Counted from the first letter of the stretch, positions 33,101 through 64,000 are shown. The stretch: 64,000 nucleotides of DNA from Gloeobacterales cyanobacterium (GCA_038245785.1 JBBRSB010000008.1:1-64000), one strand, 5' to 3'. Made by a program: the numbers.

Positions 33101-36100
33101 TAGCTTATTGGTTACAGGAGCAGGGATTAGTTAAAAAATACATGGTGGCTCTAGAACAAGGAGATATTCTCCATCGTTCAGGCCGCGTCATCGTAGATCT
33201 TTCTGTTGCTCAGCCCCGCATTGGGGGAGAAGCCGTTACGGTTATGAGGGGAGAGTTAGTTTTTTAACTTATCCCATCATCAGTAGTTCGGTTTTGCGAC
33301 AGTATGTTGGGTGTATCAGGCAAACCAAAAGCTGTAATAGCTATAGCACAAGATAGCAAACCAAAATGAGCTTCCCAACCAATACGAGGTGGTGTCATGC
33401 TTACCTCTCCCTTCTTCTAAGGCTAGCCCTTCGCTATATTCTTCAATAGTCATGGTCATACTTCTAGAGTGTAAGTTTTTGCGCCGCTCATGCACTTCAA
33501 CTCGATACGGTTCATGCTGATTAAAGACCATCCACAGAAATATTATGAGCGCAACCGTTCTTAAGGAATGATTGGGAATTGCTAATGTCCCTATAGCCAG
33601 TCCAGCAAGCTCTAACGCTCTTTCATCATTGTGGGAGAGAGATAATAGATTAAAAGCCGTCTGAGGTAGATGTAGCCTATGGTTGAGCCCCAAAAATGAT
33701 ACCAGCAGCGCAATAATCTCGCTGCACGCCAACCGTATCAAGGTAGTCAGTAAGCCAAAGAGCCTTTTGGCAGTGGGTATGCTGGGGCGATAGCTTCAAA
33801 AGTCAATCATAGCTGAGTGCTAGATGCTTAACTGTCGTGACTATCTAACATCAAAATCTGGGTTTCAGCTATGAAGAAGTAACTTCACTCCCTTTACCCC
33901 TGGTAGAAACAGCTGCATATTAGAGATAGCTTAGAGGATTTAAGCAATGTCGATCGCCCTGACACCTACTCAAGAACAGTTGCTCGATCGCCTTATTCGC
34001 ACAGGTCGCTACAGCAGTGCTGCAGAGGTGCTGAGTGCCGCATTACAACTGCTTGAAGAACAAGAGCAGCACTATGAGCAATGGCTGGAGGAGACACGGC
34101 AAAAAGTCCAGGTTGGAATTGATGAGTTGGATCGCGGCGAAGGCTTGGATGGCGAAGTTGTGATCCAGCGATTGCGCGAGAAATTGCGGAATGCCCGTGC
34201 ATCAGATTTATGAACCGCTACATTATTTCGCCAATCGCCAGCCGAGATCTAGAAGAAATCATCGACTACTTTACAAAACAGGATATCGATGCTGGAGAAC
34301 GCTTCGTTGCGGAGTTCAACAAAAAATGTCGTAATCTGATGCAGTTCCCGAACCTGGGACGAAGTTATGCTGATCTTGCACCTTTGCTTAGAGGCATTTC
34401 TCTGGAAAAATACATCATCTTTATCTTTTACAAACCTGCTAACGATAGAATTGAAATCGTTCGGGTAGTAAGTGGTTATCGAGATTTGCCTGCATTGTTT
34501 TCGCTACCGGATGCCCCATGATGGTATTTGTTGCAGCTTATAAATCCAGCGGATAGGAGAGTAAAAGGGATTTAGGCTTCCTGAGCGTCAGCCGAACGGG
34601 GGTGCAGCCTTCCCGAAGGATGGGGGATCTCGAATTGCAAGAGAACTCAACAAATACGCGGTAATTGTTCACCGCTTAACATATCAACGATGCGTCGGGT
34701 GCCGATTCTACTGCGCATGGTCACAAGCGGTTGAGCGCCGACCTTCGTTTCCACGCGGCCAATTAGGCAAGCCTCCCTACCCAAAGGATGGGAACGAAGA
34801 ATCGCCAAGGCTCGTTCCGCCTCAGCCTCTGGAACGAAAGCAACGAACCTTCCCTCATTGGCGACATAGAGAGGATCTAAGCCCAGAATCTCACAGGCCC
34901 CTTGGACATCTTCACGCACAGGAATAAGGTTTTCAGCGATGGTAATTGTGATACCAGCGGCCTCGGCAATTTCATTTAAAGCACTGGATAAACCGCCACG
35001 GGTCAAGTCTCGCATACAGTGAATTTCAATCCGGGCAGCGAGTAGTTCTAATACCAGACTGGCAAGCGGTGCTGAATCACTTTCAATCGTGCTCTCAAAG
35101 GCCAATCCCTCTCTAACCGCCATAATGGCGATGCCGTGACGCCCAATATCTCCATTCAGCAGCAGAACATCCCCTGGCTGGACACTCCGAGGTTCTATCC
35201 GTTGAGTATGTTCGACGATGCCAATGCCAGCAGTGTTGATAAAAATGCCATCTCCTTTGCCCCTATCCACCACCTTGGTATCGCCCGTAATAATCTGCAC
35301 GTTGGCTTTCTGGGCAGCGTGCTGCATTGATTGCACTACCCGCCAAAGGGTCTCCATCGGCAGCCCTTCTTCCACGATGAATCCAGCACTGAGATAAAGC
35401 GGACGCGCTCCGCTCATCGCTAAATCATTAACCGTGCCGTTCACTGCGAGCGAACCAATATCACCGCCTGGGAAAAAGAGCGGTTGAACGACATAGGAAT
35501 CGGTTGTAAAAGCAAATCGTCCACCCTGGAGGTTGAGCGTAGCGGAGTCATGGCGGGCCGAAAGCATCGGATTGCCAAACGTTGGCACAAACATTTCTTC
35601 AATCAACTGATGCATCAACTTCCCACCCCCCCCATGAGCCATCAAAATCTGGGGATAGCGCTCAATCGGGATAGGACAAGACAAGGAAAAGTCTTCGTTT
35701 TTTTCCATTACTGGTCATCGAGCTGCTTGGGCGTCATCAACCAAGCAAGTTTTCCGGTATTGTCCTGGATCTCCTCCCAGTGGTCAACCTGAAACTCTAT
35801 ACATGCCACCGCAGCCGTAGGCATTTGTCTATAGGCTCCAGTCAATTGCTCGACCAATTCTTCAAAGCCTGGATTGTGTCCTACCAGCAGCACACAGGAA
35901 CTCCTGTCAGGGATCAGTCGCATGAGGGCGAGCAATTGATCCGAAGACGCACCGTAGAGGCTTTCGTCAAATTGAGGACTAAGGTCCAGTTGAGCCACTT
36001 GGATAACCGCTTCAATCGTCTCTTTGGCCCGAACCGCCGGTGAAGCAATGATTAGATCCGGCAGAAGCTTACGTTTTTTAAGCTCTTTTCCGATGCGTGG

Positions 36101-63100: not shown

Positions 63101-64000
63101 GCGGCAACCCTGGCAAAATTTGAGCGGGCCATTTTTGTGGATGCTTATATCGCTGCCGATGAAGAAGACGTAGGGGTTCATCCTCTTAAACCTGCTCACA
63201 CTGGAGGGATAGCAGGACACACCGGAGATCCGCAGTCTTTGCTAAGCCTTACCCAAGCGCTTTATGAACACTGTCCTCAGGCTTGGTGGGTGACGGTCCC
63301 AGGAGTCAATTTTGAAGTGGGAGATAGCCTTTCTCTCAAAGCTGAACAGGGAGTCACTAAAGCACTGGAACGAATCGAGCTGCTGCTTAAAGATGCCAAA
63401 GGAGGCCATGAGCCATGCACGAAGTCGGATTGATGCACCGTATCCTGGACCATGCCCTGGAACAGGCACGAGCGCAGGGAGCTCAACAAATTAACGAGAT
63501 TCACGTGCGGGTGGGAATAGCCTCTGGGGTCGCACCTGAGAGCTTAGATTTAGCTTTTCAGGTAGTCAAAAAAGGGACGATTGCAGAAAAGGCTCAGTTC
63601 AAAATAGAAGAGGTTCCGATTATTTGCCACTGCCCCAGATGCAAACAGGATTTCCAGCCGCTGGACTCCTGGCTCTATGAATGTCCGCAATGCCATCAAA
63701 TCAGTACGGAAATACGTCAAGGGAAAGAATTGGAACTGGCCTCTCTCGAAATTTCTTGAGGTAGAAAATGCAAAAGCCGATCCCCTTAGCCTCCTCAAAA
63801 GTTGACCCTGCCCACGATATTCTCCGCACCGAAGGTCAACCCCTAGATATCATCTTTGCCCCAAAGAGCGTGGCGGTGATTGGGGCATCAGAGCGCGTCG
63901 GTAGTGTTGGGCGCACGATTCTATGGAATTTAGTCAGCAATCCGTTTGGAGGAACCGTTTTCCCCGTTAATCCGAAACGGCACAGCGTTCTTGGCATCAA

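Follow-up and report, generated by a model that had tools for sequence, protein, structure and literature searches.

A Hox hydrogenase and pyruvate:ferredoxin oxidoreductase gene module in one Gloeobacterales genus, probably acquired from crown cyanobacteria

Gloeobacterales are taken as stand-ins for the earliest oxygenic phototrophs, and we know of no cultured member of the order with a hydrogenase. A cluster of genes for a Hox-type hydrogenase, pyruvate:ferredoxin oxidoreductase (PFOR) and hydrogenase maturation in a Gloeobacterales genome (G000, of the genus Ca. Sivonenia) raises the question of whether such a module descends from the base of the phylum or was brought in later. Our analyses indicate that the module is real and probably functional, with activity predicted from sequence, and that it was probably acquired laterally. 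A literature search found no report in print of a Hox/PFOR module in Gloeobacterales.

The window, that is, the whole stretch of DNA analyzed, comprised 64,000 nucleotides (G000:C8:1-64000), and all coordinates below are window coordinates. Genes were called from Pfam and NCBIfam profile searches of the window ORFs. The features between 34.6 and 63.8 kb are as follows.

34647..35708, minus strand: hypE, hydrogenase maturation, cyanide ligand synthesis (TIGR02124, 480.6 bits, cut-off 251.6)
37014..38576, plus strand: pyruvate kinase, 520 aa (PF00224, 174.7 bits; NF011314, 596.9 bits, below the cut-off of 642)
39447..40529, minus strand: hypD (PF01924, 526.5 bits; TIGR00075, 524.2 bits)
40545..41636, minus strand: pfkA, hox-linked phosphofructokinase paralogue (PF00365, 310.9 bits)
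41648..42643, minus strand: dihydroorotate-dehydrogenase-like (DHODH-like) gene, dhodL (NF005741, 526.9 bits, cut-off 303)
42640..46281, minus strand: nifJ, pyruvate:ferredoxin/flavodoxin oxidoreductase, 1213 aa (TIGR02176, 1853.5 bits, cut-off 911)
46282..46619, no strand: nifJ/hoxE divergent intergenic region, presumed shared promoter region, placed from the ORF map
46620..47195, plus strand: hoxE (NF005747, 259.7 bits, cut-off 224)
47285..48274, plus strand: TPR protein between hoxE and hoxF (TPR_1, 139.9 bits)
48284..49930, plus strand: hoxF, NAD(P)H/FMN-binding diaphorase subunit (PF01512, 170.5 bits; PF10589, 116.6 bits)
50003..50722, plus strand: hoxU (NF005745, 421.7 bits, cut-off 333)
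50710..51252, plus strand: hoxY, hydrogenase small subunit (PF01058, 104 bits)
51289..52713, plus strand: hoxH, [NiFe] large subunit, 474 aa (PF00374)
52800..62800, no strand: low-GC toxin-antitoxin/defence islet, outside the pathway (Pfam; GC 0.36-0.45)
62945..63433, plus strand: hoxW-type hydrogenase maturation endopeptidase (TIGR00072, 58.8 bits, cut-off 47.45)
63415..63759, plus strand: hypA, nickel metallochaperone (TIGR00100, 114.9 bits, cut-off 88.1)

The plus strand thus carries hoxE-(TPR)-hoxF-hoxU-hoxY-hoxH, divergent from nifJ (PFOR)-DHODH-like-pfkA-hypD, with pyruvate kinase and hypE beyond hypD and hoxW-hypA beyond the islet. All the genes named in the genome-wide survey's note lie where it placed them, including hypF and hypC on contig C4, which they share with a Gloeobacterales-type rpoB, and the toxin-antitoxin island that it put between hoxH and hoxW/hypA is present as an islet of about 10 kb. 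The pyruvate kinase is a cluster gene absent from its list, and the N-terminal ~160 aa of this protein have no domain assignment. The islet encodes HicB, two copies of HTH_37, BrnT/BrnA, PIN, a KAP NTPase and Uma2. The maturation protease ORF spans 62807-63433 on the plus strand, with the ATG at 62945 as the likely start; it has no Pfam match even at E 10 and was identified by NCBIfam TIGR00072.

Subunit content and active-site motifs identify the cluster as a group-3d bidirectional [NiFe] hydrogenase operon (HoxEFUYH) that is intact. All five subunits, those of the diaphorase (HoxE, F and U) and those of the hydrogenase (HoxY and H), are encoded together, and HoxE and HoxU pass the NCBIfam equivalog cut-offs (259.7 versus 224 and 421.7 versus 333 bits). 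Large subunits of [NiFe] hydrogenases carry an N-terminal RxCGxCxxxH and a C-terminal DPCxxCxxH motif, together with a C-terminal extension for protease cleavage. The translated HoxH has the C-terminal ligand motif DPCLSCSTH followed by a 25-aa tail, its N-terminal NiFe-ligand motif is also intact, and the ligand motifs are invariant across 12 aligned HoxH sequences. The HoxY translation holds the Cys motifs GCSGC, GDC and PGCPP. A HoxH tree (163 rows; six outgroup representatives) placed the protein inside the Hox clade, and the concatenated tree described below agrees. Among solved structures, HoxH gave full-length matches to 7t2r_D (552 bits) and 5xf9_D (467 bits), and no solved cyanobacterial Hox was among the structure matches of the HoxH sequence search. 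PFOR is of the single-chain NifJ type, with POR_N, PFOR_II, POR, EKR, two 4Fe-4S and TPP domains in Pfam, and matches the solved PFORs 6cin and 1b0p over its full length (1378 bits to 6cin_A). The solved relatives, namely the [NiFe] hydrogenase 7t2r/7t30, the NAD-reducing soluble hydrogenase 5xf9 and PFOR 6cin/1b0p, are all non-cyanobacterial enzymes.

The survey's note had called the Hox/PFOR module complete. This holds for the hox, PFOR and hyp genes, which are intact, whereas HypB and Pta were not found. The maturation set of G000 comprises HypA, C, D, E and F and the protease. HypB was absent from profile searches of G000 and of the two other genomes of the genus (G012 and G013); its best match in G000 (82 bits against a cut-off of 121) is UreG and was rejected. 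As G000 is 98% complete, a gap at hypB is possible in one genome and unlikely in all three. Neither TIGR00651 nor PF01515 detected Pta in G000, and HupE/UreJ was likewise not found. AckA is present (481 bits), and an ADP-forming acetyl-CoA-synthetase-like protein that adjoins hypA is a putative Pta substitute. Embden-Meyerhof-Parnas (EMP) glycolysis requires PFK and pyruvate kinase; G000 has two PfkA copies, on C8 and C3, and a pyruvate kinase whose domain scores below the NF011314 cut-off. A search of sequencing runs retrieved no RNA run with the operon and is silent on expression or habitat; the whole operon was recovered in one DNA run, possibly from the source sample, with small shares in 13 other runs.

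The module is unique to this genus among the 14 genomes of the order that were searched, three of which (G000, G012 and G013) belong to the genus. PFOR scored above the cut-off in 3/14 genomes and PFK in the same three; both were found in none of the 11 genomes outside the genus, five of which are closed or nearly so (1-3 contigs). The hydrogenase distribution that the survey had reported was reproduced, with PF00374 matches in 4/14 genomes and a full-length large subunit in G000 and G013 only. In G012, pfkA-dhodL-nifJ lies on a 5.5-kb contig whose end falls at the expected start of hoxE, and a partial hypF is also present, so the missing hox genes probably reflect an assembly gap. The 134-aa hydrogenase fragment of G011, outside the genus the sole hydrogenase-like match above the cut-off, overlaps a 5'-truncated psaA at a contig start, in a genome where neither HypD nor HypF was found, and was rejected as a chimeric contig end. 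HypD was not found in G012 or G013. No hypD remnant was present where contig G013:C142 ends or where G012:C228 starts, although the gene might lie just past these points. The TPR gene is specific to G000, being absent between hoxE and hoxF in G013.

The closest relatives of the cluster are found in crown cyanobacteria. Compared with cyanobacterial homologues, HoxF shows 75-78% and HoxH 81-82% identity, and the hoxW-type protease is 47-58% identical to the hoxW that follows hoxH in crown genomes. The Hox of Nostocales, Phormidesmis and Pleurocapsales (clade B below) has the same five subunits in the same order and the same HoxH ligand motifs and C-terminal tail, at identities across 15 clade-B taxa of 76-82% for HoxH, 72-78% for HoxF, 70-82% for HoxU and 67-83% for HoxY. 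Unlike these systems, the present cluster is hosted by a Gloeobacterales genome, has a TPR gene between hoxE and hoxF, has hoxW-hypA moved 10 kb away by the islet, and encodes a HoxH without a 9-residue insertion after 'GYP' that is found in 15/15 clade-B taxa and 0/35 others. Nostoc sp. FACHB-152 (L012) has the same gene set and linkage in a contiguous hoxEFUYH-W-nifJ-dhodL-pfkA array and provides the closest nifJ and pfkA (nifJ 74-75%, dhodL 70%, pfkA 67%), while two other crown genomes, G279 (C47) and G259 (C84), share the divergent layout hypD-nifJ(-)|hox(+). Compared with the crown hox-nifJ-dhodL-pfkA supercluster, the Gloeobacterales cluster also has pyruvate kinase and hypE nearby. Its HypD is of a non-Nostocales type, with 70-77% identity to families f5, f10 and f35 and 51-53% to Nostocales (f9), and no single sampled crown genome is the best match for all parts of the cluster. 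In Cyanobacteria, Chloroflexota and Planctomycetota, a nifJ gene adjacent to hox is followed by a DHODH-like gene. The co-occurrence and linkage of hox and nifJ, and a proposed fermentative role, are described for crown cyanobacteria in parts of an earlier study (PMC2974642).

A concatenated HoxEFUYH tree (50 taxa, 1625 columns, IQ-TREE with LG+G4) placed the genus as sister to crown clade B with 100/100 support, an unrooted relation that is compatible with transfer in either direction. Clade B without the genus was supported at 100/99, and the other cyanobacterial clade, A, was placed elsewhere at 100/100. An AU test rejected the topology with A and B together and the genus outside (delta lnL 76.6, p-AU 0.0195), a value that is optimistic given that clades A and B were defined with a first tree already in view. 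The test did not reject a single cyanobacterial Hox clade (p 0.14). For PFOR, a careful tree of 39 rows, which left out two f39 rows and two long-branch f36 rows, placed the genus with one Nostoc nifJ at the base of the crown clade (50/93), and crown monophyly with the genus outside, the vertical topology, was not rejected (p 0.26). A quick tree of 43 rows had nested PFOR within the crown; the careful tree did not retain this placement, which was discarded.

Divergence was also expressed as the distance between this genus and Nostocales (f9) divided by the distance between f9 and other crown families. This ratio was 1.39 for RpoB and 1.01 for PFOR, and our own arithmetic on the distance matrices gave about 1.44 for AccA and about 0.96 for HoxH. 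By this measure HoxH and PFOR lie about as near to Nostocales as the remaining crown families do, with the reservation that RpoB and AccA are the only two vertical calibrators and that a lineage-specific rate change is possible. The cluster pfkA shares 61-67% identity with its hox-linked counterparts in Nostocales and Phormidesmis, versus 55% with the genome's own C3 copy, and a passage of a 2025 preprint (10.1101/2025.11.10.686926) independently infers that the pfkA of the Sivonenia clade is 'of other cyanobacteria origin'. Composition is a weak transfer signal and only mildly unusual: GC falls in the 94th-97th percentile, and 8% of random segments show as large a tetranucleotide distance. 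The survey's note had pushed Hox/PFOR to the base of the phylum. The sister relation of the genus's Hox to a crown subclade, the p-AU of 0.0195 for the vertical Hox topology, the ratios of about 1.0 against about 1.4 and the crown-cyanobacterial character of the hypD-...-nifJ|hox layout and the hox-linked pfkA all argue against that claim, and lateral acquisition, which the note had offered as a caveat, is the better reading. The main text of the Puggioni 2016 survey (PMC5186783) contains no mention of Gloeobacter, nifJ, horizontal, ancestor or monophyletic.

That the cluster contig came from a co-occurring crown cyanobacterium by misbinning is extremely improbable. The assembly does have 255 contigs and an estimated contamination of 1.42%, and the cluster GC is slightly above the genome mean. 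Against this, nifJ and pfkA are carried by three separate genomes of the genus at 86-91% identity, and the closest crown HoxH is only 82% identical. The 135.8-kb contig has a genome-typical composition (GC 0.472 versus 0.479) and encodes an AccA that is not of crown type, with 92% identity to the AccA of G013 and at most 68% to any crown family; hypF and hypC share their contig with an RpoB closest to other Gloeobacterales (85% and 84%, versus 81-83% to crown). It is also quite unlikely that the hydrogenase is not matured or not fermentative, in which case it could be a relic or could act as a redox valve with no net H2 metabolism. This could be argued from the missing HypB in all three genomes, from Pta, missed by two models, from the failure to find HypD in both sister genomes and from the break in the usual gene order by the TPR gene and the 10-kb islet. 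However, all five hox genes, PFOR and five hyp genes have open, full-length reading frames, the ligand motifs are intact, and the 86-92% identity of these genes between two species is consistent with purifying selection. The HypB paralogue UreG is present, the acetyl-CoA-synthetase-like gene adjoins hypA, and it is precisely at these loci that the assemblies of the sister genomes are broken.

As to origin, under a vertical history this Hox type, PFOR and PfkA would have been present in the last common ancestor of oxygenic cyanobacteria, with retention in this genus, loss in other Gloeobacterales and clade A as a later xenologue. We consider it unlikely. It would suit a genus that is sister to clade B and not nested in it, a HoxH without the insertion, a near-native composition, the unrejected single Hox clade (p 0.14) and the PFOR tree (p 0.26), in which the next branch outward is that of non-photosynthetic Cyanobacteriota (f38), the order expected of a species tree; loss is also common, Hox being patchy in the crown (85/401 genomes). 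Yet the topology with A and B together and the genus outside was rejected (p 0.0195), the ratios for HoxH and PFOR fall to about 1.0 where RpoB and AccA stand at about 1.4, and the cluster pfkA shares 67% identity with a Nostoc hox-linked copy and less, 55%, with the second copy in the same genome. The absence of PFOR and PFK from all 11 other genomes would moreover call for at least two losses of about 15 genes. A transfer from Gloeobacterales to the clade-B stem, or to both from a Chloroflexota/NC10-like donor, is very unlikely. The sister relation is symmetric as to direction, Chloroflexota/NC10 Hox are the next neighbours (HoxH 74-81%, without the insertion and of nearly the same length), and nifJ-dhodL-hoxEFUYH is contiguous in Chloroflexota and Planctomycetota too. 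For all the other cluster proteins, crown cyanobacteria are nevertheless clearly the closest, namely for nifJ (74-75% versus 61-63%), dhodL (70-77% versus 54-58%), pfkA (61-67% versus 35%) and hoxY/hoxU (up to 82-83% versus 64-75%), and PFOR and hox-linked pfkA are widespread in the crown, as against one genus in Gloeobacterales. That the insertion-free Hox type and PFOR either descended from the oxygenic cyanobacterial ancestor or were donated by this lineage to the crown is, overall, unlikely. If one of these readings were true, the oldest surviving form of fermentative H2 metabolism in cyanobacteria would be the one kept by this genus, with the Synechocystis-type Hox clade imported later.

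We favor lateral acquisition and infer that the whole module probably passed from a crown-group cyanobacterium to the ancestor of the genus. The donor would have belonged to the stem lineage of the Hox clade that Nostocales, Phormidesmis and Pleurocapsales carry today, at a stage before the HoxH insertion arose. The transfer would be old, since the composition is nearly ameliorated and the module is common to three species, yet younger than the split of Gloeobacterales from other cyanobacteria. In the cluster, the hydrogenase operon stands head-to-head with a glycolysis and pyruvate-oxidation block (nifJ, DHODH-like, PfkA and pyruvate kinase) and is linked to hyp genes. Crown cyanobacteria produce H2 by dark fermentation with this gene set. 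By analogy with these organisms, stored glucan would be routed in dark anoxia through EMP glycolysis, made possible by PfkA; PFOR would convert pyruvate to acetyl-CoA, CO2 and reduced ferredoxin or flavodoxin; and Hox may then release the electrons as H2, or take up H2 when favorable.

One Gloeobacterales genus thus holds genes for EMP glycolysis, PFOR pyruvate oxidation and H2 cycling, with HypB and Pta not found. Such genes would suit life in sediments and mats, where one study reports Ca. Sivonenia (PMC10438808). The module resembles an old acquisition from crown cyanobacteria, which cautions against reading it as an ancestral trait, and is in line with the view, put forward in sections of the preprint cited above (10.1101/2025.11.10.686926), that Gloeobacterales remodel their central metabolism by gene transfer.

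Cyanobacterial Hox itself forms two clades, and in the best tree neither is the other's closest relative. The HoxH insertion was rejected as a marker of all crown cyanobacteria, as the clade-A cyanobacteria are also without it; it marks one of the two clades, clade B.

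The Hox/PFOR module in the window is real and intact, and it is kept across species of the genus. It lies on contig C8 (135.8 kb) of a 5.0-Mb genome in 255 contigs that is estimated to be 98% complete. The genes were identified with Pfam and NCBIfam profiles and are laid out as follows.

34647-35708, minus strand: hypE (Pfam and NCBIfam)
Between hypE and hypD in the gene list, minus strand: SixA-like phosphatase and DUF7219 protein (Pfam/NCBIfam)
37014-38576, plus strand: pyruvate kinase, 520 aa (Pfam/NCBIfam)
39447-40529, minus strand: hypD (Pfam and NCBIfam)
40545-41636, minus strand: pfkA (Pfam/NCBIfam)
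41648-42643, minus strand: dihydroorotate-dehydrogenase-like protein, dhodL (NF005741)
42640-46281, minus strand: PFOR (nifJ), 1213 aa (TIGR02176, 1853 bits against a cut-off of 911)
46620-52713, plus strand: hoxE, TPR gene, hoxF, hoxU, hoxY, hoxH (Pfam and NCBIfam)
47285-48274, plus strand: TPR protein, 329 aa, between hoxE and hoxF (Pfam)
52800-62800: toxin-antitoxin/defence-type islet between hoxH and hoxW-hypA (Pfam, GC)
Likely start 62945, plus strand: hydrogenase maturation protease, hoxW-type (TIGR00072)
63415-63759, plus strand: hypA (Pfam/NCBIfam)
63768-66572 of C8 (locus L163:69-2873), beginning in the window's last 230 bases: 934-aa protein directly after hypA (TIGR02717)

The hox-nifJ-hyp gene set claimed in the genome-wide survey's note was thus recovered in full by Pfam/NCBIfam, and hypF and hypC were confirmed on contig C4. 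The divergent nifJ and hoxE are separated by 338 bases. In translation, HoxH shows both a stretch of 15 residues (not shown) and DPCLSCSTH, the latter with 25 residues after it, and the cysteine motifs of HoxY are kept. The pyruvate kinase is new to this analysis, being absent from the earlier note; no domain is assigned to its first ~160 residues, the barrel domain beginning at residue 163, and its NF011314 score (596.9) is under the cut-off of 642.

The same note called the module complete, which holds for hox, PFOR, HypA/C/D/E/F and the protease but not for HypB and Pta in profile searches. No HypB scored above cut-off in any of the three genomes of the genus (the top match was UreG), Pta was not found in the subject genome with two models, and neither was HupE/UreJ. 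AckA is present on contig C42. The 934-aa protein combines an ADP-forming acetyl-CoA-synthetase-like part (561.5 bits against a TIGR02717 cut-off of 567.15) with a GNAT end and keeps an 'SHTG' histidine motif. It may supply the missing acetyl-CoA-to-acetate step, though only as a lead; a Pat-type protein acetyltransferase is just as possible. Elsewhere in the order, the closed 4.2-Mb genome G001 shows the reverse of the hydrogenase-bearing genus, with a bona fide HypB (L176, G001:C1:2096995-2097633, 291 bits) yet no hydrogenase large subunit above cut-off.

The toxin-antitoxin island said to part hoxH from hoxW and hypA was also found. It is low in GC (0.36-0.45) and holds HicB, two HTH_37 proteins, BrnT/BrnA, a PIN protein together with a HicB/ParD-like protein, a KAP NTPase and Uma2. 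Among the best 80 of 574 loci, crown relatives have hoxW directly after hoxH, whereas here the islet intervenes. The TPR insertion is found in the subject genome only, hoxE being followed directly by hoxF in the sister genome G013.

Two vertical markers were used to place the contigs. AccA, encoded on C8, is 92% identical to that of G013, 63-65% to other order members and 65-68% to crown families, which are 73-78% identical to one another; on these identities C8 does not come from a crown cyanobacterium. RpoB, on the same contig (C4) as hypF and hypC, is 98% identical to that of G013; two other members of the order follow at 85% and 84%, and crown genomes at 81-83%. The HoxH of G013 is identical to a public protein labeled 'MAG: Gloeobacterales cyanobacterium'.

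Distribution was assessed in 14 Gloeobacterales genomes. PF00374 matched four of them, three above cut-off, and full-length frames occurred only in the subject genome and one sister (G013), as the survey had reported. PFOR above cut-off and PFK were each restricted to the three genomes of the genus, with two PFK copies in both the subject genome and G013. The PFK pattern (3/3 against 0/11 others) agrees with a preprint that restricts pfkA among Gloeobacterales to the Ca. Sivonenia clade (10.1101/2025.11.10.686926). In the other sister, G012, pfkA-dhodL-nifJ lies on a 5.5-kb contig that ends where hoxE would begin, and a partial hypF sits at the end of another contig; the missing hox genes therefore probably reflect a gap in the assembly. 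Profile searches of G012, G013 and G011 gave no HypD; the G013 contig ends 357 bases past pfkA, and no HypD remnant was found there. In G011, a contig opens with a 134-aa fragment of a group-1-like [NiFe] large subunit (L283, G011:C177, 1-2178). We rejected it as probably a chimeric contig end, since it overlaps a psaA lacking its first ~158 residues and the genome has no HypD or HypF match. With this fragment discounted, a credible hydrogenase is confined, among the Gloeobacterales genomes searched, to the subject genus. No published report of Hox in Gloeobacterales was found, and supplements, outside this scope, could hold gene tables naming it. The main text of the Ca. Sivonenia description (PMC10438808) lacks the words hydrogenase, fermentation, pyruvate and anoxic, and in PMC2974642 Gloeobacter violaceus is listed without any entry for hydrogenase.

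Across the best 80 of 574 confirmed loci in named genomes, all cluster proteins were closest to cyanobacteria: nifJ at 74-75% against 61-63% to others, dhodL at 70-77% against 54-58%, and pfkA at 61-67% against 35%. For HoxH, 13 metagenomic protein clusters match at 91-97% identity, and the next tier (77-82%) contains crown cyanobacteria (483 aa) and Chloroflexota (473 aa) alike. In Nostocales nifJ-dhodL adjoins hox (again among the best 80 loci), the order in Nostoc sp. FACHB-152 being hoxEFUYH-hoxW-nifJ-dhodL-pfkA, while Phormidesmis has pfkA divergent from hoxE and Chloroflexota and Planctomycetota have nifJ-dhodL-hoxEFUYH. Two crown genomes, G279 and G259, share the layout of the window, with hypD-nifJ on the minus and hox on the plus strand. 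By homology, the module is predicted to be the PFOR-ferredoxin-Hox route of crown cyanobacteria; according to work on Synechocystis, Hox takes electrons from ferredoxin or flavodoxin. PMC2974642 ascribes a fermentative role to hox and nifJ where they are linked.

Several non-Nostocales crown families have a HypD 70-77% identical to the window's; for Nostocales the figure is 51-53%. HypD across the 401 phylum genomes falls into two types at about these identities, and the distribution of HypD types over lineages does not match that of Hox types. The cluster PfkA is only 55% identical to the second copy on contig C3, which is of the canonical NF010674 type (651 bits; within locus L282, G000:C3:192000-211000) and lies 4.4 kb from the NADH-nitrite reductase gene nirB (NF011565, 1293 bits), with atpG between. 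The NF005741 protein dhodL follows nifJ directly beside hox in Cyanobacteria, Chloroflexota and Planctomycetota (L012, L014, L021, L033, L036, L043, L074 and L185), and this recurrence in three phyla suggests that dhodL is a functional partner of PFOR or Hox that has gone unrecognised.

Of the 401 phylum genomes sampled, 85 carried HoxH. A FastTree of 163 rows, with seven dropped (a duplicate, five partial rows and one row of 41% identity) and six distant representatives added, gave two cyanobacterial clades, here A (Synechocystis-type) and B (Nostocales, Phormidesmis and Pleurocapsales). All five hox genes occurred in 76 sources, of which 50 (the window, G013 and 48 loci) were used after thinning Nostocales and Verrucomicrobiota. 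Genes were aligned one by one and nine insertion columns taken out. In the resulting tree (IQ-TREE, LG+G4, 1625 columns) the genus joined clade B with 100/100 support, clade B alone received 100/99, and clade A (100/100) was placed elsewhere. Clades A and B were not sisters in the best tree. A 9-residue HoxH insertion after 'GYP' is present in 15/15 clade-B taxa and 0/35 others, so the genus left the clade-B stem before the insertion arose. A single Hox clade of all cyanobacteria was not rejected in the AU test (p 0.14), while the topology demanded by strict vertical descent, in which A and B unite to the exclusion of the genus, was rejected (delta lnL 76.6, p 0.0195, an optimistic value since the grouping was chosen once the first tree had been seen).

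PFOR was found in 250/401 phylum genomes. A quick tree (43 of 57 collected rows) placed the genus within the crown, close to Nostocales. A careful tree of 39 rows left out two long-branch f36 rows and the two non-photosynthetic f39 rows that had fallen within the crown. In it the genus and the hox-linked nifJ of Nostoc sp. FACHB-152 form a pair (93/76) that is basal to a rest-of-crown clade of weak support (50/93); non-photosynthetic Cyanobacteriota lie outside. A monophyletic crown excluding the genus was not rejected (p 0.26), so PFOR topology settles neither a lateral nor a vertical origin. The nested f39 rows (L246 and L247, from G089 and G029) sat on a long branch of the quick tree and may represent a further transfer.

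Relative divergence was expressed as the distance (-ln identity) from the genus to Nostocales (f9) over that from Nostocales to other crown families. The two vertical calibrators, few but concordant, gave 1.39 (RpoB) and about 1.44 (AccA); PFOR gave 1.01 and HoxH, for Nostocales against family f19 only, about 0.96. Elsewhere the rates of AccA, HoxH and PFOR are similar, both within the genus (92%, 91% and 89% identity) and between f9 and f19 (75%, 78-80% and 74%), and a simple rate effect therefore does not account for the ~7-12-point excess likeness to the crown shown by PFOR and HoxH of the genus. We consider an old lateral acquisition from a crown cyanobacterium the best explanation and a reasonably probable one. 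Vertical retention in the genus, with which the PFOR tree is compatible, is unlikely given its rejected Hox topology, and transfer in the reverse direction or from a third party is quite improbable. The suggestion that Hox/PFOR fermentation reaches the base of the phylum was accordingly not upheld (Hox p 0.0195, optimistic; PFOR and HoxH ratios of ~1.0 against ~1.4).

Upstream of the module, positions 1944-23884 encode a Pfa/heterocyst-glycolipid-synthase-like polyketide set in a non-heterocystous, thylakoid-less lineage. It comprises a 1799-aa KS-AT-ACP protein, a KR-DH protein, a KS pair, a PfaD-like enoyl reductase, a TubC_N protein, an SDR and an MGDG-synthase-like glycosyltransferase, along with UDP-galactopyranose mutase, a DevBCA-like ABC exporter and a phosphopantetheinyl transferase. 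Further along C8, at about 76.6-77.8 kb (L163:12879-14084), lies the gene for a PRK04439-family methionine adenosyltransferase (NF003363, 620 bits); this is the archaeal type, unusual in a cyanobacterium.
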